From assembly GCF_039555335.1 (NCBI RefSeq), contig NC_092646.1, positions 58,138,946 to 58,202,945 on the forward strand: 64,000 bases of DNA, given 5' to 3'. The position numbers and the translations under genes are program-made. Below, one piece after another: positions 5,944-40,670 of the stretch. The notes beneath the pieces were generated by a model. That model did not search any database. It saw only the letters and a list, made by a program, of their open reading frames with translations, and was not told where the DNA came from. Each line of letters opens with the position of its first letter. Position 1 is the first letter of the stretch. This DNA is from Amphiura filiformis (Eukaryota).

Positions 5944-6355
5944 TAGTAGTAAAGTTAGCTCAATCGTTAAGGCGTTCGACTATCATAGTGCGAGAGGTTG
6001 CGGGTTCGAACCCTTGCGGTGCCTAGTATGCTCTCGTGGAAAAATTGAGTAAGCTTGAAATTCCCCTGGACAAGGAACTTACTGCTAATTTTTCTCGTTG
6101 TAACCCGTACGAAACACGGGGAGCTGATCCTGGTTGCGATGGTTATTTGTGGAATGTCTAGGGTGTGCGCTCTTGAAGCAGCAAAGTCTCTGATTTGTTG
6201 TTTAATGGTTTATGGAATGATGTGGGGCCGTATATGGTCAGCGACAACCTGTAAAGTGTGCTGAGGCTTGTGGATCAACGTCTAGGCGTTGTTGTGCCTG
6301 TGCGTAGCGCACTATAAATCACTGCGCTTTATTATTATTATTATTATTATTATTT
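5944..6355 (+). mobile_element. SINE-like element. It has a degenerate tRNA-derived head (5944-6030, with T-arm-like ggttgcgggttcgaaccc), the ~290-bp body shared with 3085-3356, and an (att)8 tail at 6331-6354.
   Basis: tRNA-like D- and T-arm motifs are present but no clean cloverleaf. The body matches copy 1. The microsatellite tail is typical of SINE 3' ends. Confidence 0.55.
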
Positions 6356-6406
6356 TCCACAAAAGATATCTTGCTCCTTACAAGTCTTATTTTGGACTTG
6401 TTTCAG

Positions 6407-6701
6407 TCCGCCTTTTTGGTCTTTCAAGTGGTACCAAATACGGCGAAGTGGAAGTATACTACAATGGAGCTTGGGGTGCAGTGTGTGCTGACAACTGGGA
6501 TAAAAACGATGCAACTGTAGCATGTCGTCAACTTGGATTCTTTCCAGCGCCATTTGTGAGTTCTTATGGACAAGTAACTGGACCATTATCGATGACCAAT
6601 GTAATGTGTACTGGTACAGAAAAAAGTTTAGATGAATGCAGTCATGAAGGTGAACCTCAAACCTGTGCGTCAGCACGCCATGCATATATAGATTGCAATT
6701 A
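6407..6701 (+). CDS. Single-exon SRCR (scavenger receptor cysteine-rich) domain. The peptide is (I/V)RLFGLSSGTKYGEVEVYYNGAWGAVCADNWDKNDATVACRQLGFFPAPFVSSYGQVTGPLSMTNVMCTGTEKSLDECSHEGEPQTCASARHAYIDCN.
   Basis: The acceptor is tttggacttgtttcag|TC at 6401-6406 and the donor is TTA|GTAAGT at 6702-6707. The peptide has the canonical SRCR pattern (VRL..G, VEV..NG.WG.VC.D.WD..DA.VVCRQLG, C.G.E.SL..C). Entry phase is 1 and exit phase is 2. Confidence 0.85.
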
Positions 6702-6714
6702 GTAAGTACTAAAT

Positions 6715-17100: not shown

Positions 17101-17529
17101 GTGGTGAAAAAATGTTTTGCAAGCCCTGTGTTTAGTCTCCTCCGCAGCCAGTTTGGTTACGCACCCTTTGTGTAGAGGGAGCGGAACCTGGCTGCTGTGG
17201 AGACAAACTGCAAGGAAATACATTTGAACTTGTGGCATTATAGCGGCGACCATATTTGCATATGGTCATACTGAACATGTCGCTTTATGTTATGTCAAGT
17301 GAATGATAAAAGAAAATATTGTCGAACGCGCTCATAAATGCAAACATGATGGATATATGCAGGTACTCTGCATTTTGCTTCGTTGTTGCAACTCTATTGT
17401 TCAACTCGTGCGCTGGTGATGGCCCGTACCCGCACCTGGGATTGGGATTGGGATCGTTATCGAGGTAAGATTAAGGTGTCGTTCAACCACCTTTGAACAG
17501 TTTTTTTTTGTGGGGCCTGAGCCTGAGAG

Positions 17530-25386: not shown

Positions 25387-28346
25387 TTATAGTTTTCTCA
25401 TTACCATCCTTAAATTTGACGACCCAAATCAATGTATTTCCGGAGATACCAAGGAAAAAAAATGATGGTTTTTTGTATAATTAATGTTTTGATTATTTAA
25501 TGTACAATTATAATTATATGTTATAAGGTGGTACATCGTTTTCAGGCCTCTTGGCCTTGTGATGTGCCTGCCTTCATCAATACTTGTTAATGTGCAATAA
25601 TTTAATTTACCTCTGTTGTTACATTGTATGCTTTATGAGATTGATGAAAAATAAAAGATTGATTGAATGGTATACCACTTTTTGATTCTGGGTAGGAAAG
25701 AATGAATCCGTGAATTTGGTCCGTTTTACTCCCATAGCGTTCGATTGCGATCAGTTATACTCCGCATGAAATATAGGTCCAAAATAATACTCTCTTTAGA
25801 CCCCCCCCCACACACCCCAATATTGGGTAAAATTTGAAAGATGAAAAGAAAGTAGTAGGAAAAATTTAATTAAAAAAAAAAAACTCATGTCACGGAAGGA
25901 CGGTCGATGATCAGTGAGGGGTGCGTTAGCGAACTCAAAAGTAGTACGAGCGTACAGAAAAGAGAGTTCTCGCGTACGCCAGTTGAGTGCTCGCTCAGAT
26001 GAGGGATGCCGCCAGACCCGAACGCTGTACCGGCGTCATCAGCTGAATTCATACACCCTAGAGGGCACCGGGCACATATAGGGAATATTCCAATCTATGT
26101 ATTTATTAATGTATGGTTAAACTAACCAACTAACGCACCCACCAACGCCTCGGCACTTCGCGCCTGAATGAGTTCGGCCTCGACCCGCATGTGAAAAATC
26201 TTCCTGCCTATATGATTTTAAGTGACCAAGAGGAGGAGGGGTAGCTCCCCCTGTCTTACCCCGATACACTTTTTACGAAAAAGGCGCATAGTGGCGTATC
26301 TTGATTACGTGATCCCAGTAACGCCCCTATGGGATACACTTCTTCGTAAAAAGTGTATCACATAGTGGCGTATCGTGACGCCACTATGTGATGCCTACAT
26401 CAGTGGAAACTTTATGATAGAGACATTGCGATTTCCAAACGTAGACATCGGACGTACGTTGATCTATTCAAAACCACTCTCCTGTATCGAAGCGAGGTCA
26501 CGTATTTAGCTATTTTGGAAGATATTCCACGTGCGAAGTCGACGTAGATACATCGTTGAAAATGCACAAAATTTGTCCATTTCACAATATGTTAAAGACA
26601 GTCAAAGATAATGAACATATGAAGGAAAGTCTAATTATTATTATGATCCTTTTTGTTTGTAACAAATCATTATAATAAAGGTACAGCGATGTGTTAAAAA
26701 TGGATTTATTTTAAACGCAATATTCACACGCAGAGATTGCCCATTGAAATGTGTGTGATACTTTGCGTTGGAAAATGACATTGCGGTTTCCCATTTTGGA
26801 TTCCAACGTAGAATAAAAACGCAGATGGTACGTTGAAATATGCTGATTTGACCTCATGTTTAAGTCCATGCAACGCGCCCAATTTTCAGGACGAAAAAGT
26901 CTCATTTTAAAAGTAAAGTCATGATGTATGTATGTAGTGATCTTTAATCTACCAAAATATATGTTTTTGGGCAACTATAATATTTGTGGAGCACAAAAAA
27001 ACAATTAGGTTTAATCAGCATGTAGGTCAAAATTTTAATCAAAATCAAAAGCGGTCTGTTTGAATTTAGGCAGAGACTCAGCTCACTGTTATTTTTTCAA
27101 TCACTATGCCCTCTATCGACCTAGGTTAGAAGCTGTTAGATTAGATCAAATATAATAGTCTTTATTCTCATCTAGCTGTCTTGTTCTCCTTCGTGACGAA
27201 TGAGCACAATCCAGTCTGGAACCGAGACTAGCAATATTTAACATCGTATTAACGTACGCAAAAACGTACGCGAAAACGTACGTTCCACGTGCTGCGTTTG
27301 GAAAATCGCAATTATGCTGTCAGTTGTTTAATTCTTCATCCCGATACAGCAAACCAGTATAAGTTTAATGACTAATTAAAATTAATTTTCATATGCATTC
27401 ACCAACTGTTCCTAGCCGAGTATCTTCAGTAGCCAGAGCAGGCACATCAGCTAGCCATATCCTTTACTATGTCTTGTTCTCATTGGGTTAGTGGTGATTC
27501 CACCTTAGCCTTCTGCTCATCCATATTGTTGCAAACCTTTCTATGGAGTGGTTTAAACAATAGGCGCTAAAACAGCTGACCACAAAACGCGTATTTGGCT
27601 TCGATACGTAGACGACGCCTTTCTTGTTATTGAAGCGAATGAAGCGCAGCAGTTAACAGACAATATCACGTTTTTTAAACAGACATACACTAAAGCAAAG
27701 CATGAAGAAGTCCTAAGATACTTCAAGAACACACCTCAAAACAAATCATTTTCTGACATACTGCGCACAACAAATTCCTTCTCGTCTGGTTTCGTACGAA
27801 GCGTCGGGAAGTATTTAACTCTCTTCACGCGGGTGTCGACTGCAGACGACATGTTTCAAATTTTTTTTTTTAAATCAAAAATTTCAAAAATGTAAATTTT
27901 CATGACCATATTTGGAATCAGCTTGAAAAATGCATTAAAATGAGTACAAATAAGCCTAGTATTGGTTCAGTAGTTCTTAAGATAGCTCTTGATATTTTGA
28001 GAAAACATTTCAAAACTTTTTTTCCGTTGAAGCGCATGGCTAGCAAGCAGAGCATTAAAAAGAAGCAAAATTACCATAATGACTACATCAAGTTTACTAA
28101 TAACTAATTACAAATGGGGGTTAGGCGGTTTTTGCCCAAAGCAATTGGGATCATTGACAGATAATAAAAAGCGCAGTGATTTATTTTTTTTTGATAGATA
28201 ACTTTTCAGGAAAAAATATGCACCGTGCGCACAAGAATTTGCAATTTGCAATCTAAAATAGGTTAAACTTGTTCTTTTATGGATCAAATGGACATTTAAT
28301 TTACTGAAAAAGTATATGAGAGCTAAATATCCTTTAAATTTTTCAG

Positions 28347-28454
28347 ATGAATGTGAATCCAACCCTTGTCAAAATGGTGGTTTTTGTATAGATGGTGTCA
28401 GCCAGTATAACTGTATCTGCCGAAGTGGATTTTCTGGAACAAGATGCATGACAA
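28347..28454 (+). CDS. Calcium-binding EGF-like domain exon of 108 bp in phase 1-1, encoding (D)[35 protein letters not shown].
   Basis: Acceptor tttaaatttttcag|AT and donor ACAA|GTAAGT. The peptide has the cbEGF signature D-x-D/N-E-C, six Cys and the Asn/Tyr hydroxylation context. The symmetric phase 1 is classical for EGF modules. Confidence 0.85.
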
Positions 28455-28483
28455 GTAAGTACACGCTCATTGCTTTACGGCAT

Positions 28484-32503: not shown

Positions 32504-32632
32504 ATTTTTCAGATATAGATGAATGTGCTTCTGGTCCTTGTCTAAATGGTGGTAGATGTAGAGATGGTGTCAACCACTATAGCTGTATCTGTCCAAGTGG
32601 ATTTGCTGGAACAAGATGCTCTGTGGAACACG
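32504..32632 (+). CDS. Second calcium-binding EGF-like domain exon of 129 bp in phase 1-1, encoding (D)[39 protein letters not shown].
   Basis: Acceptor cctttaatttttcag|AT and donor ACACG|GTAATG. The exon is ~80% identical in nucleotide sequence to the 28347 exon. The 30 bp upstream of both acceptors (tatatga[g/c]agctaaatatccttta) is conserved, indicating tandem duplication of the exon unit. Confidence 0.85.
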
Positions 32633-32757
32633 GTAATGAGACAAGCGCATTATTGAAGACGAGAAAATAATAAATAATAATAATTTTTAAAAAAACACAC
32701 GGAAAAATAGCCAAAATAGCCTCATATACCAAATGGAACCGATTTACGCTCATTATA

Positions 32758-35275: not shown

Positions 35276-35419
35276 GTCAACATACAGCATTTAGTGTAAT
35301 AAATAACAGGTGTTGGCCAGACTGTGGTCCTTTTCTCCATGTCTCATTTTGGGCCGGTGCAAGTAAATTAGTCCACTCGTGGCCTGAGTACTTATGTGCA
35401 TGACTTTATATTATTGCAG

Positions 35420-35671
35420 ATCTTGAAATCTGGAAATGTGATGATATATTCAGGACGTCTTCAACAGAATATGTAAGAGTATTTTTCCTTCGCGGACGCC
35501 AAGCACAAAATAACGTAGGTGCTAGTGGGGGATATCACAGGGAATTCAATCCACCATCGGGCAGCATCTTCAAAGCTGGGACAATAACATCCGTCCGATT
35601 TACAGTTACCGATGAAAACACAGTCAATATTTCGTGTACATTCAAAGTGCAAGTCCAACACGACCAAAGAG
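35420..35671 (+). CDS. Candidate internal coding exon of 252 bp in phase 1-1, with an open frame of 84 codons: (D)LEIWKCDDIFRTSSTEYVRVFFLRGRQAQNNVGASGGYHREFNPPSGSIFKAGTITSVRFTVTDENTVNISCTFKVQVQHDQR.
   Basis: Acceptor tttatattattgcag|AT and donor AGAG|GTAGTC. There is no stop in 84 codons of AT-rich sequence and no ATG, so the frame is absent from the ORF track. Phase 1 at both ends is compatible with the upstream EGF exon and the downstream 36966 exon. An alternative short exon would end at the GTAAGA at 35473. Confidence 0.5.
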
Positions 35672-36965
35672 GTAGTCTACTTTATATCTTATAATACAAA
35701 ATGCACACATCAAAGAAAGAGTAAATGTAAAGCATAATTATATTGCAGTGGGAGAGGTGTAAAATTGTACTGCATTGAAAACCCCCCATAAAAATCGTAC
35801 ATTATGGCTGCAAGGCTGACAGAGTACTATTTTCTAAATTCAAAACTTTTAAGTTTAAAACCTATCATGTTATATACCATTATTTAATCATTCGTATCTA
35901 AAGTATTTCAGAGTTTATTATAGTATGCAAACGGTATGCTTATTTACAGCAGGTCTCATTTTCTTAGCATATATAAAGCACCCGGTTAAAGTATTTACTA
36001 CTATTTCATTAGGACTGAGGAAGAAAGTGGACTTTTAGGTTCAAAAGATTTTAAAAAAAAACCAACACGATACGTGATAAAACATGATACTAAATTCGTA
36101 ACTTCATAATATGGATCTAAGGATAGAAAATGAGTGCTTCTGAGTCGAGAAGACCAAAAGTCGGCATTTTCCTTTTTAACGTATGCTTGCATGTTCGTTT
36201 TTTGCTTGATACCATCTTATATTCCCTCCAATAATTCGACAATACCTTTCTCAAATAGCTAGATCAAATTGTCCAAGTGCAATGTTGGTAATTCTAATCA
36301 GAGATTAATACGGTATCATGCAATTGAATACATGAATACAAAAGCCACCTAAGTCCATGCGAAGTTATTTTGAGAGAAAAACCCGTGTATCATTTTAATT
36401 CCTTCAGTTAGATTTACCTGGTCAATATGGTAAGTTTTACATGCAAATGAGTGGATTAACCTGTATTAGGTATGACGATTAGCATTTCAGGGACTTCGTG
36501 GGGTTCATTTTAAATTTTGGACTTTTTTGGTTTTTTGAATCATATACAAAGACAACAATGTTAGAATGAGATTACCACTAGTAAGATAATACAAAATAAA
36601 GCACACAGGTATGTATAATGTAGATAAGCATTCTGCCATGTAATATAAACCACACACTTTCCTTTATTAAACCCATTTTTTGTTCAAAAGTCATTCTCTA
36701 GCAATGAATGTGTTACAAGTGGACTTTTATACATACTGGATTTCAATCAATGTGTTACAAGACTCAAATCATGGAATTGGGTGATTCTTTCATACATGCT
36801 ATTTTTCACATGCCCAATAGACACAGAGAATGAATTTGAGTTGTTCTTTCATGCATATGACAGGCCTATGTATAGCAACAATTTCCCATGCTTAACTCAA
36901 TTTGGCCAAAGTATGGACTTAGGTGGCTTTTGTATTCATATATTCAATTGTTACATTTTTTACAG

Positions 36966-37323
36966 CATGTCACGTTGGACCCGAAATACCACCGAAAGAC
37001 GAATTTCCGTGGGCAGGCCTTACGCCACCTTACGGCTATAAGGGGATTCGAGGTGGATACGTTTACATTTTAGCAGCAGATTATTATACAATATATTGCA
37101 ATGGATCTGTATCTAGTTGGGACTATTTTGCAGAGACGTCCGCAGCTTTCCGAGCTATAGTATTTAGACCTGGTGGTAACCCGAAACAGTGGACCATTGT
37201 CGGTATCAATGACATTCCTCCTCATACAGCCAAATACCAGTATAAGTCTACATACGTTGTTCCGTACGGTGATCGCATATCGGTTGAAGCGGGTGACGTT
37301 ATCGGTGTCGCAGTCGGTGAAGC
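36966..37323 (+). CDS. 5' part of the terminal coding exon, entry phase 1: (A)CHVGPEIPPKDEFPWAGLTPPYGYKGIRGGYVYILAADYYTIYCNGSVSSWDYFAETSAAFRAIVFRPGGNPKQWTIVGINDIPPHTAKYQYKSTYVVPYGDRISVEAGDVIGVAVGEA. In the present sequence it ends after 3 extra codons at a TGA (37331-37333) supplied by the inserted MITE.
   Basis: Acceptor ttacattttttacag|CA at 36951-36965. The frame is open for 120 codons. The first-codon junction with exon 35420-35671 gives G+CA (Ala). The domain is not recognised and appears beta-rich. Confidence 0.6.
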
Positions 37324-37699
37324 CAGAGGATGATTTAAGCACTTCCCAGCAAGTCTTGCGGTTAGCACAGCTGTGTGAGTGAACATGACACCACTGCCCG
37401 CCCACTGCACACACACGTGCATGGTTAAATTTGAATTTGGATAGATATATTTACAATAAAAACACCTTCAAAAAGTTGGTCGATTTCACATTTTATGTTA
37501 TCTACAGAAGGTGTGAATTATCCTTCATGCATACATCACTTTACATCTGAAATCGACCAAGTAATAATGACACACGGGCAATTCTAAAACAACATCTTTT
37601 GCACAGAGTTCAATGGGATTTGAAAAGTAAAGTGGCAGTTGAAACTCTAGTGATAACACTTTTACAGTGCATGATGGGGCTTCCTTAAATCATCCTCTG
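37324..37699. mobile_element. MITE, family G, 376 bp, with 16-bp TIRs (cagaggatgatttaag / cttaaatcatcctctg) and a perfect 9-bp target-site duplication CGGTGAAGC (37315-37323 and 37700-37708). It is inserted inside the terminal coding exon.
   Basis: TIRs and TSD read directly. The second copy at 39519-39903 has its own perfect 9-bp TSD, ATATCCTCC. A 9-bp TSD suggests a Mutator/MULE- or Merlin-like origin. Confidence 0.85.
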
Positions 37700-37708
37700 C
37701 GGTGAAGC

Positions 37709-37934
37709 AGACAACCCGAAAATACGGAACACGTATATTACTGAAATGCACGTTGAAAGCGCTCCGTTGGCTGACCCTATGACCCTGACGCCAGGTGACA
37801 CCGTTACTACTAATCATGATTCGAATTATGTCTACGATGCAATATCAATTTCAGCCATAATTTCAAACACAGAAGCAGGTAATATAAATGGCAAGTCTAT
37901 TCTTCTAAACTGTGTACACGGTTGTTTGATGTGA
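37709..37934 (+). CDS. 3' part of the terminal exon, contiguous with 36966-37323 once the MITE and one TSD copy (385 bp) are removed: ...DNPKIRNTYITEMHVESAPLADPMTLTPGDTVTTNHDSNYVYDAISISAIISNTEAGNINGKSILLNCVHGCLM*.
   Basis: After removing 37324-37708 the reading frame continues without a stop into ORF-track entry 37746-37934, in the same frame (385 mod 3 = 1 is exactly compensated). The stop is at 37932-37934 and an AATAAA lies 73 bp downstream. Confidence 0.45.
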
Positions 37935-38006
37935 TCATTTATTAATTTTTCTAACGAAACATTATTATGTTTAATTCTAGACCTAAATACGAACAGCTAT
38001 CACACT

Positions 38007-38012
38007 AATAAA
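38007..38012 (+). other. Candidate polyadenylation signal AATAAA, 73 bp downstream of the reconstructed stop codon.
   Basis: Read directly. The surroundings are AT-rich, so specificity is low. Confidence 0.3.
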
Positions 38013-39518
38013 CTGTATATACACATATATTTTGTAGCAATTTCTAACACTATATTTTCGTTTGTAGGCCTATATCAAATAATTTTTTCTACTTTTTGTG
38101 GTAATCATTTAATCCTATAAACTGTACATAAAATGTGTGTGCAAATTGATTTTACATATATTTTTCTTTAAATTAGCCAAATAATGACTTATACCTTACA
38201 TTTCACGATAAAAAGTTTTTTGAAAATTCCTTTGTCATTTGTTAATCTGTTTGCTGGTATTGTAAGTGTCTACCCCTTCCTGATGAAGATGCAAACAAGA
38301 TTTTAGATAAATAGCGCCATCATTGTTCAACTTTTCTTTAAAATGACTCGGTTTTACATACCATTAGTACTGGGTTATACAACCATGATATGGATTCTTT
38401 GGCACCAATAACATATAAAACAACACCAATATCAATAGAATAAGGCATAGAATAATATTTTTGATGCAAAATGACAATTTTCAGACCCCCCCCCCCTGGC
38501 CGAATAAGGTTTTTGGACGGCGCCTTCTCATTTTTTGGCCGATTTAAAAAAAAAAAAAAAGGTATTAGAATGCTCAGGAGACCATCCTGCATCAAATAAG
38601 CTTGAGCCCTAAGGAACCCGAAACATCACCATTTTTTTTACCCCTCTTTAACCGACACCTATACCATCAAACAACCGTGTGTAGCAACCAGATTAATTTG
38701 TGGTCAATGGGGCACACCGACACCGCCTGGCTAATAATTATTTGGTGGAGCAGAGACACTAAAATGAATACACGGGATCGATACACGTGAATTGCTATGC
38801 ACGATTTTGATATCAGACGAAAATCTTCGAATACTGGGTTAGAAATTGATGAATATCTCCCGCAAATGAATTTTCTCAAGAAACCAGATGTGGTCTCATA
38901 CACTTGAAAATACGTGTTGAACAGATATGATAGTCGCTAGAATGCGCTTTGAAAATTGGCCGTGCGCTTTGAACTCAAAATCTGACCATTTTATATTGCG
39001 TTGGTCCTGTAATACCCTGTATGGACTACAGCGTGTAGTACAGCTGCACTCACTGTAGGCAGTATAAAAGTCGATGACCATTGACCTCAATGGAGTATAC
39101 AAGCTTATTCACGCACAACCAAGATCAATAACCCGGCTATTGTGAGTAGCCTTAGTTATGTCCCTCGACTAATTATTAGTTCTAAAGAGCTTTAAAGGTT
39201 TGAACCAAATGGCTAATCGTGGCTGTGGATTCAACCTACCATGGCGATTCCTGCCATGAAGATATAGGGTCGATGACACTGTGTGGGGTTATTCCATTTC
39301 AAATCTAGATTGACGCAGAGACAAAACCACGTTCACTTGATGAAAGGGTATGAGGGCTATGATCAATATTCAATTATGCAAATGAATTATCGTCACAACA
39401 ATAATGTTTGAAACCCATACTGCCTTATGTAGCTAAATCTTCTACAGGAGTGTGGATTTCAAAAAGACTACTTTTATTTCGGGTGGTTTTCCGAAACCGC
39501 GAGATCTCCATATCCTCC

Positions 39519-39903
39519 CAGAGGATGATTTAAGGAAGCCCCATCTTGCACTGTAAAAGTGTTATCACGCGAGTTTCAAATGCCACTTAACTTCTGAAAT
39601 CGCATTGAAGTCTGTGCAAAAGATGTTGTTTTAGAATTGCCCGTGTGTCATTATTACTTGGTCGATTTCAGATCTAAAGTGATGCATGCATGAAGGATAA
39701 TTCACACCTTCTGTAGATAACATAAAATGTGAAATCGACTGGCATTTTGAATGTGTTTTATTGTAAATATATCAGTCCAAATTCAAATTTAACCATACAC
39801 GTTTATGCAGTGGTCCCGGGCAGTGGTGTCATTTTCACTCACACAGCTGCTAACCGCAAGTTGACCCCAGTGGAGTGCTGGGAAGTGCTTAAATCATCCT
39901 CTG
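39519..39903. mobile_element. MITE, family G, copy 2, 385 bp, inverted relative to copy 1, with a perfect 9-bp TSD ATATCCTCC (39510-39518 and 39904-39912).
   Basis: TIRs cagaggatgatttaag at 39519 and cttaaatcatcctctg at 39888. The interior is ~85% identical to 37324-37699 in reverse complement. Confidence 0.85.
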
Positions 39904-39919
39904 ATATCCTCCCTTCCTG

Positions 39920-40255
39920 TATCATAGTTCCGAGGTCAGATACTTCAAGTCCAGGGTCCTGCTTCAGCTCATGTAAGGGACGGTATACCAGGGTCAGATA
40001 CTTCAAGTCCAGGGTCCTGCTTCAGCACATGTAAGGGACGGTATACCAGGAAATTCGTACATGAGAGTGACATATAAATAGAATGAAATAACCCAAATGT
40101 TATCTTTTAATGTGACATTAATTTTGTGTAAAACGGTTGTATGTTTAAAAACATTCAACCGTTTTAGACAAAATTAATGTCACAAAAAATAAATGGGTGT
40201 GATTCTATATATTTACGTGTCACTCTCACTTTCCTGTACGAATTTTCCTGGTATA
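39920..40255. repeat. Two tandem 55-bp units (ggtcagatacttcaagtccagggtcctgcttcagc.catgtaagggacggtataccag) followed by a ~220-bp hairpin at 40035-40255.
   Basis: Direct reading. aggaaattcgtacatgagagtgacatataaatag at 40035 pairs with ctatatatttacgtgtcactctcactttcctgtacgaattttcct at 40205. Confidence 0.65.
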
Positions 40256-40670
40256 AATTATACCGTCCCTTATTATGTAGATGAGCTCAAACTCTGAGCT
40301 GTGAAATGACAATGAAATTTGCTCCTTATTTTACACACTACAAACAACCATAGGCCTATCCAAGCAACAAAAATGGAGATTTATTATACACTAAAATGGT
40401 TTATAACATGTGTGCTTTTTCGTTTGTGCAATCAGATCCAGATGGTAATCAACAGCAGCTTGTTCCAACAACGCAGGAGACGACCACTAGTGGCAGAGTG
40501 GTGAAGCCGAATTCCAGACCAGAGCCAGATGGCAGGCAACAGCCGAATTCCAAGAAGAGCTGGAAAATCTTCCAGCGTCCATAGATGTACTCACATTAGC
40601 CTCTGCCCGAAATAAATTTGGGTCTGCGAAACTGTTTTGGTTTAATGTTCAGTTTTCAGTTAGGTCGTGG

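Follow-up and report, generated by a model that had tools for sequence, protein, structure and literature searches.

Two insertions of a MITE-type element with 9-bp target-site duplications in Amphiura filiformis, one of which splits the final coding exon of an EGF-EGF-HYR gene

We conclude that the window studied here, a 64-kb stretch of DNA from the brittle star Amphiura filiformis, contains two copies, 1.8 kb apart, of a genuine MITE-type non-autonomous DNA transposon, and that these copies represent two independent insertions. The element is considered real because its boundaries are exact, its terminal inverted repeats (TIRs) share the same 16-nt ends, each copy has its own 9-bp target-site duplication (TSD), and it is devoid of coding capacity. 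One of the two copies lies within the last coding exon of a gene. The locus as a whole is very probably explained by two insertions of an ~380-bp MITE through a transposase that cuts its target with a 9-bp stagger, most likely a Mutator-like (MULE) enzyme, with copy 1 truncating the host gene. As a transposon, the element is routine. The A. filiformis genome consists of 59.3% repeats and has experienced a recent burst of DNA transposons (PMC11310086), so that MITEs are expected there, and the pair is an ordinary sort of element.

Copy 1 occupies positions 37324 to 37699 (376 bp, plus strand) and copy 2 positions 39519 to 39903 (385 bp, minus strand), which are exactly the limits proposed in an earlier, sequence-only reading of this DNA. 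That reading had also placed the copies in opposite orientation, and indeed copy 1 aligns with the reverse complement of copy 2. The homology between them is bounded exactly by CAGAGG at one end and CCTCTG at the other, and the flanks are unrelated. The bounding sequences of the element are CAGAGGATGATTTAAG…CTTAAATCATCCTCTG. The same perfect 16-nt repeat occurs at all four termini (in copy 1 at 37324-37339 and 37684-37699, 16/16), and the match is 23 of 28 positions when the TIRs are extended, in both copies. Searched for across the 64 kb with up to three mismatches, the 16-mer is found at the four termini only; shuffled sequences gave a mean of 0.75 sites, and none of 100 shuffles reached four. 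An 11-mer with at most one mismatch again recovers just the four terminal sites.

Each copy is flanked by a perfect 9-bp duplication, and the duplications differ between the copies, as had been claimed: CGGTGAAGC for copy 1 (37315-37323 and 37700-37708) and ATATCCTCC for copy 2 (39510-39518 and 39904-39912). By chance, a perfect 9-bp flanking repeat would be expected with a probability of ~4e-6 per copy. The register of the copy 1 duplication is unique, at 9 bp, because the bases just beyond each repeat do not prolong it. The repeat around copy 2 can be read as 10 bp only if the terminal repeat gives up its initial C, a reading that copy 1 excludes. The ninth base is C in one duplication and A in the other and is therefore target-derived. 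Thus defined, the TSD has a fixed length and a site-specific sequence in the two copies (n = 2), and the copies, at 376 and 385 bp, fall below the size of ~800 bp that bounds MITEs. The DNA of copy 1 is predicted to fold at -52.6 kcal/mol (z = -3.7) with its termini paired. Removal of this copy and one TSD gives the empty-site sequence …GCAGTCGGTGAAGCAGACAACCCG….

The host of copy 1 is an EGF-EGF-HYR gene whose product is RefSeq XP_072018549.1 (A. filiformis), with 100% identity over the exon. The part of the last coding exon that lies upstream of the insertion spans 36968 to 37323 (plus strand; 100% identity in tblastn with the annotated protein and the reconstructed exon), and tblastn places the other exons at 17419-17463, 28340-28456, 32506-32640, and 35419-35670. 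Translation enters the terminal repeat by two codons and then stops (…GEA-RG-TGA). The TGA of the annotated protein, at 37331-37333 (plus strand), is located inside the TIR of copy 1 and closes an ORF (36923-37333) with the C-terminus …VGEARG. The abrupt …GEARG end of XP_072018549.1 is thereby explained as the work of a transposon-derived stop codon. Without the MITE and one TSD, the frame runs on continuously through the orphaned rest of the ancestral coding exon (37709-37934, plus strand), which ends with the ancestral TGA at 37932-37934 (plus strand). A candidate poly(A) signal of the ancestral gene, AATAAA, follows 73 nt past that stop (38007-38012, plus strand). The sequence-only reading had described the two copies as bracketing the 3' end of the gene. 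This description stands for the ancestral stop codon and the AATAAA, both of which lie between the copies, and needs correction at its upstream limit, where copy 1 interrupts the last coding exon and itself contains the annotated stop. Copy 2 is situated in non-coding DNA, ~1.5 kb past the poly(A) signal of the ancestral gene, and its insertion there, beyond the gene, is presumably neutral.

Copy 1 splits a conserved C-terminal beta-sandwich domain that follows EGF-EGF-HYR. The reconstructed exon has 116 homologues, many of which align across the junction (residue 119/120) and out to residues 153-171. All of the conserved motifs, namely N-P, DP..L.PG.T.TT, and S-x-S-A-x-[IV]-S, have their coding sequence 3' of the MITE. 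In an AlphaFold model (pLDDT 87, pTM 0.86), strands 126-138, 150-152, 158-164, and 166-171 are encoded downstream of the insertion. The homologues and the model thus show that the intact ORF, obtained by taking out the MITE and one TSD, encodes the last four beta-strands of the domain; the orphaned segment provides the last ~57 residues of the domain and an 18-residue tail. The protein of the reference allele is without these four strands, and the insertion has removed one third of a conserved extracellular domain. We leave the domain unnamed, as no Pfam family scored over threshold on it and Foldseek searches against the PDB returned only weak jelly-roll/CBM-like matches (TM ≤0.51).

The segment that follows the MITE is present in no database protein, and therefore none of the annotated isoforms is spliced across the insertion. 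The reference allele has probably lost its function or become hypomorphic. Its transcript should escape nonsense-mediated decay, since the last exon is where the premature stop occurs.

The element shows no coding capacity. Stops occur in all six frames, in copy 1 as in the element generally, and the concatenated six-frame peptide had no match among 5.8e9 proteins. The window contains six ORFs of at least 130 aa, of which the search named only the host exon ORF and an SRCR ORF; no transposase-like ORF was seen among the six. By blastn, just these two copies, and no other copy or fragment, occur in the 64 kb. Their closeness, with no others in the window, suggests that the element reinserted locally or prefers targets in this region. 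Scans with structured patterns and with 25-nt terminal patterns returned 0 matches in JGI metagenome contigs, GTDB genome contigs, and IMG/VR viral contigs. Brittle-star DNA would not be expected in these collections, and the zero counts are therefore uninformative with regard to copy number. The terminal 13-mer had only unrelated matches in the literature, and in an Rfam scan of 37000-40400 the MITE copies were without match.

Other readings of the pair, and of copy 1 in particular, deserve consideration. The two arms could be the long TIRs of a single ~2.6-kb element (a long-TIR MULE, a foldback element, or a composite) or the halves of an inverted segmental duplication, given that the pair shows 100% complementarity over its outermost 28 nt (37324-37351 with 39876-39903) and that arms of ~380 bp are of the size of classic MULE TIRs. 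However, each arm has TIRs and a perfect 9-bp TSD of its own, the outer flanks do not match (CGGTGAAGC versus ATATCCTCC), the homology halts exactly at the element ends, and the DNA between the arms starts by continuing the host exon in frame. We consider a single element or a segmental duplication extremely improbable and reject it on the basis of the arm-specific TSDs and the interior that continues the host exon. Two separate insertions remain our reading of the pair. Within it, copy 1 might be a nascent transposon-derived intron in a metazoan, spliced from a GT at 37317, within the left TSD, to an AG either within the right TSD (37707) or just past it (37710), with the frame kept minus two or three residues. 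Suitable in-frame pairs exist (37317..37707, 391 nt, minus 2 aa; 37317..37710, 394 nt, minus 3 aa) and create no stop, both the exons upstream and the orphaned ORF downstream have stayed intact, and transposon-derived introns have been reported in the echinoderm S. purpuratus (PMC12130899). As with introners, found in Strongylocentrotus purpuratus among others, we see here a small DNA transposon in an echinoderm coding exon. Unlike with introners, the RefSeq CDS ends inside the element, and the sites available are weak, imprecise, and cryptic. In the RefSeq model, the reading frame continues into the element and terminates within it, and no database protein includes the downstream segment that splicing would restore. 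The donor matches 5 of 9 consensus positions, and pyrimidines make up 59% of the acceptor tract, which has A at -3 in one of the two options; these sites are clearly weaker than the real ones of the gene. A precise GT-AG intron equal to the insertion is impossible, the only options being imprecise ones of -6 or -9 nt. We regard the intron as very unlikely, and truncation by copy 1 as the reading to be preferred. If the element were spliced out, the gene would still be intact, and brittle stars would have an introner-like family with 9-bp TSDs. The TSD of copy 1 happens to include both GT and AG.

In the mechanism that we propose, a DDE transposase encoded elsewhere would bind the identical 16-bp termini, excise the element, and integrate it where the two target strands are cut 9 bp apart, and gap repair at these cuts would produce the 9-bp duplications. 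Copy 1 landed mid-domain in the final coding exon of the EGF-EGF-HYR gene. As the source of the transposase we tentatively favor a MULE because of the 9-bp stagger, with Merlin second and a hAT-like source a poor fit. The assignment to Mutator or Merlin made in the sequence-only reading is likewise tentative, with TSD length as its one guide. An origin outside Mutator, as a Merlin-derived MITE or as a hAT- or P-like element with an atypical 9-bp stagger, is possible, although we think it the less probable of the two. Elements of the hAT superfamily follow a terminal YARNG rule, to which the CAGAG at all four ends conforms, and this terminus resembles the ends of hobo and Tol2. A short TIR combined with such a motif is what the present element shares with hAT-type MITEs (Ac, hobo, Tol2), whereas the TSD of hAT elements is 8 bp and that of both copies is unambiguously 9 bp. 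Merlin TSDs are, reportedly, 8-9 bp according to Feschotte in 2004, so that 9 bp would sit at the edge of a range of 8 (to 9) bp. The animal MITEs derived from Merlin (IS1016-like) resemble this element in being small, short in TIR, and non-autonomous, with TSDs of 8(-9) bp, and TIRs as short as 16-28 bp are found more typically in Merlin or hAT elements than in classic MULEs. Merlin TSDs are nevertheless mostly given as "8 bp" (PMC10045372), in contrast to the exactly 9 bp, not 8, of both copies. Repbase does include hAT families with TSDs other than 8 bp, for example, one with a "7-bp TSD" (PMC4455052).

For a MULE source, the length of the duplication is unexceptional. MULE TSDs are 8-11 bp and MULE TIRs 14-500 bp, and short-TIR groups with 9-bp TSDs are known (PMC6446971); the 9-bp duplication, found twice here, is within that range and is the modal length for MULEs, which argues against the non-Mutator alternatives. 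Muta1, an animal MULE, generates TSDs of 8 or 9 bp, and its non-autonomous derivatives number in the hundreds (PMC5225508). Like the element described here, non-autonomous MULEs (the Muta1 derivatives of Aedes aegypti; TvMULE, Phantom, and Rehavkus) have 8-9-bp TSDs without an obvious target sequence and are TIR-bounded, non-coding derivatives of a few hundred base pairs, often in or near genes (PMC5225508, PMC6446971). In contrast to most MULEs, in which the TIR exceeds 100 nt, only 16 nt are perfect here (~28 nt imperfect). A TIR of 16-28 bp is short for a typical MULE yet inside the range of TvMULE, Phantom, and Rehavkus. The element also differs from non-autonomous MULEs in that no subterminal tandem repeats were seen in it and no link to a MURA-type transposase was found. 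Its defined terminal sequence and TSD length can be used for finding the autonomous element.

The two copies are ~91% identical (340 of 373 aligned positions, with three indels), and the K2P distance between them is 0.094. At a published neutral rate, this distance corresponds to ~25 Myr, if all of the divergence is post-insertion. No change is seen in the TSDs (36 nt in total) or the termini (64 nt), and the mismatches between the copies are clustered; therefore the bulk of the divergence probably predates insertion. In the A. filiformis reference, copy 1 is a clean, datable case of insertion into a coding exon and possibly a presence/absence marker or a natural knock-out allele. The inverted arrangement had also been thought capable of driving inversion or hairpin formation. 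Either may occur between the copies and is physically plausible. Cofolding of the copies predicts an energy of -578 kcal/mol and the formation of 348 base pairs between them. An RNA hairpin of both copies would need read-through beyond the AATAAA at 38007, and the longest unbroken identity that the copies share is only ~63 bp.

The noteworthy feature of this locus is an exonic insertion, in which a MITE (a non-autonomous small DNA transposon) truncates a conserved domain and provides the stop codon of the annotated protein. The exon flanking the first copy is 100% identical to the corresponding part of XP_072018549.1 (NCBI, Amphiura filiformis), a 297-aa protein annotated as "uncharacterized," with two EGF domains and one HYR domain (Pfam) and exons at 17419-17463, 28340-28456, 32506-32640, 35419-35670, and 36968-37333 (+). 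Its C terminus reads …VGEARG, and the terminal inverted repeat (TIR) of copy 1 contains both the final two codons and the TGA (37331-37333); the effective stop codon in the present sequence is transposon supplied. Excising the element and one target-site duplication (TSD) fuses …GCA GTC GGT GAA GC|A GAC AAC… into a single continuous frame, which runs for 74 further codons to a TGA at 37932-37934, with AATAAA 3' of it at 38007.

With the exon reconstructed in this way as the query, an exhaustive HMMER search returned 116 homologues at E ≤ 1e-3, many of which align uninterrupted over the insertion point (query residue 119/120) and reach residues 153-171. The coding sequence 3' of the MITE contributes all three motifs conserved in the homologue alignment (N-P, DP..L.PG.T.TT, and S-x-S-A-x-[IV]-S). 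An AlphaFold2 model of the reconstructed exon (42 sequences) is confident (pLDDT 87, pTM 0.86) and predicts a beta-sandwich in which the final four strands (126-138, 150-152, 158-164, and 166-171) are encoded after the insertion. Because homologues cross the junction and both motifs and modeled strands fall downstream of it, the reconstructed frame is not a chance ORF. We therefore conclude that copy 1 is inserted in the last coding exon and truncates a conserved domain, a placement that the sequence-only reading missed. That reading had the two copies bracketing the stop codon, 3' UTR, and poly(A) signal, which holds for the reconstructed ancestral gene only, and not for the present sequence, where the stop lies inside copy 1.

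Could copy 1 instead be a transposon-derived intron, spliced via an in-frame GT..AG pair? A sea urchin has been reported to carry such introns (PMC12130899), and two pairs are available, 37317..37707 (losing two residues) and 37317..37710 (losing three), neither of which creates a stop. However, the donor at 37317 matches only 5/9 consensus positions, pyrimidines make up only 59% of the acceptor tract, and the RefSeq model uses neither pair; we consider splicing of copy 1 very improbable. The orphaned segment downstream of the MITE is contained in no database protein, and thus none of the annotated isoforms is spliced across the element.

The interrupted exon (36968-37323 plus 37709-37880) encodes an extracellular beta-sandwich domain of ~135 aa. 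There is no Pfam model for this domain, and its structural neighbors are limited to weak jelly-roll or CBM-like matches. Many of the homologues are single-domain proteins of ~170 aa, and others pair the domain with SRCR, trypsin, F5/8-C, and ApeC domains (SRCR+trypsin; F5/8-C; astacin-ApeC-CUB-kringle-lectin). It looks like an undescribed domain family. Separately, a clear SRCR domain (Pfam PF00530, E = 1.7e-23) is encoded by an ORF at 6289-6702 (+), presumably one exon of a neighboring gene of the scavenger-receptor type that lies upstream of the EGF-HYR gene.

Copy 1 occupies 37324-37699 (376 bp) and copy 2, inverted relative to it, 39519-39903 (385 bp). The sequence matches the earlier description of perfect, differing 9-bp TSDs, namely, CGGTGAAGC at 37315-37323 and 37700-37708 and ATATCCTCC at 39510-39518 and 39904-39912, without mismatch within either copy. 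When copy 1 was aligned with the reverse complement of copy 2, each with 30 nt of flank per side, homology started exactly at CAGAGG and ended exactly at CCTCTG, with unrelated flanks; 340/373 aligned positions are identical, with 3 indel events (K2P 0.094). The TSD register of copy 1 is unique. An 8-bp TSD is ruled out by the extra base, C in one copy and A in the other; because it differs between copies, this ninth base is target derived. All four element ends carry a perfect copy of the terminal 16-mer CAGAGGATGATTTAAG, which has no other match in the 64 kb with ≤3 mismatches allowed, and four matches at that tolerance were reached in 0/100 shuffles. The terminal 11-mer, with one mismatch allowed, finds the identical four sites. 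Beyond the perfect 16 nt, the TIR continues imperfectly to ~28 nt (23/28 matching), and blastn found no further copies or fragments of the element in the 64-kb window.

Both copies are rich in stops in all six reading frames, their concatenated six-frame peptides matched none of 5.8 billion proteins, and neither copy matched Rfam. Folded as single-stranded DNA, copy 1 pairs its termini (-52.6 kcal/mol, z = -3.7). MITEs, which form multi-copy families, are defined structurally as small elements with TIRs, fixed-length TSDs of varying sequence, and no coding capacity. Both copies share this size, these TIRs, differing TSDs of fixed length, and the lack of coding capacity, which bears out the earlier claim of a MITE with a 9-bp TSD; judged by its sequence, the element is a real MITE of the ordinary, cut-and-paste kind with a true 9-bp TSD. 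Its terminal sequence is absent from the searchable literature, and there were 0 matches to it in metagenome, prokaryotic-genome, and viral collections, which are not expected to hold brittle-star DNA. An internal imperfect palindrome, TTGGTCGATTTCA…TGAAATCGACCAA, with 29-nt arms (79% complementary), is conserved in both copies (37476-37560 and 39661-39739).

Ranking possible source superfamilies by TSD length and termini alone suggests that a Mutator-like (MULE) source is most likely, followed by Merlin and then others. The CAGAG terminus fits the hAT YARNG rule, but hAT TSDs are 8 bp, whereas both copies have 9 bp, and hAT membership fails on this length. The original description of Merlin reportedly gave a TSD of 8-9 bp. 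Elsewhere, it is stated as 8 bp (PMC10045372). Mutator-like elements have TSDs of 8-11 bp and TIRs of 14-500 bp, and some of their groups combine a 9-bp TSD with TIRs of ~20-40 bp (PMC6446971); the animal MULE Muta1, whose non-autonomous derivatives number in the hundreds, makes TSDs of 8 or 9 bp (PMC5225508). Repbase places non-autonomous elements by equal TSD length and an 11-nt terminal match (PMC4455052). No transposase-like ORF was seen among the six window ORFs of at least 130 aa. The presence of a MITE is entirely expected in A. filiformis, because repeats make up 59.3% of its genome (4,695 families in the de novo library) and a burst 10-15 Myr ago involved chiefly DNA transposons (PMC11310086).

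At their outer ends, the two copies are 100% complementary over 28 nt (inverted repeat I5), which might point to a single 2.6-kb long-TIR element. Such an element and an inverted segmental duplication are both ruled out, because each arm carries separate inverted termini and a separate TSD, the outer flanks mismatch each other, and the interior opens with the continuation of the host exon; the copies are two insertions. At the neutral rate of 1.885e-9 per bp per year (PMC11310086), they would be ~25 Myr old if the entire K2P distance arose after insertion. As the 36 nt of TSDs and 64 nt of termini hold zero changes and the mismatches are concentrated in one half of the element (alignment columns 168-296 hold only two), subfamily variation that existed before insertion probably accounts for much of the difference, and the insertions are probably more recent than this estimate. 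That the upstream exons and the orphaned ORF remain intact is consistent with a fairly recent insertion into the exon.

A single RNA carrying both copies would be predicted to form a very stable duplex (-578 kcal/mol and 348 intermolecular pairs in the cofold); copy 2 sits 1.5 kb past the AATAAA, and the duplex therefore needs read-through transcription. DNA inversion through homologous recombination would have stretches of no more than ~63 bp of unbroken identity to act on. The outer ends form a perfect transposase substrate pair, and composite mobilization of the 2.6-kb unit is conceivable.

Directly after copy 2, the segment 39934-40275 probably represents a further small repeat of foldback or MITE-like type. 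A 58-bp unit in tandem (39934-39991 and 39992-40049; 98% identical) leads into a ~245-bp foldback whose inverted repeats (40051-40070/40226-40245 and 40062-40087/40203-40228) are nested, whose center holds a 41-nt palindrome (40106-40189), and in which TAAGGGACGGTATA is inverted at 40259-40272; its Rfam matches are sub-threshold miRNA hairpins only (~28-35 bits versus gathering scores of 70-101). Between the MITE copies, C10 and A14 runs ~60 bp apart (38486-38565), flanked by a short inverted repeat (38460-38473/38583-38596), may be what remains of a further small repeat.
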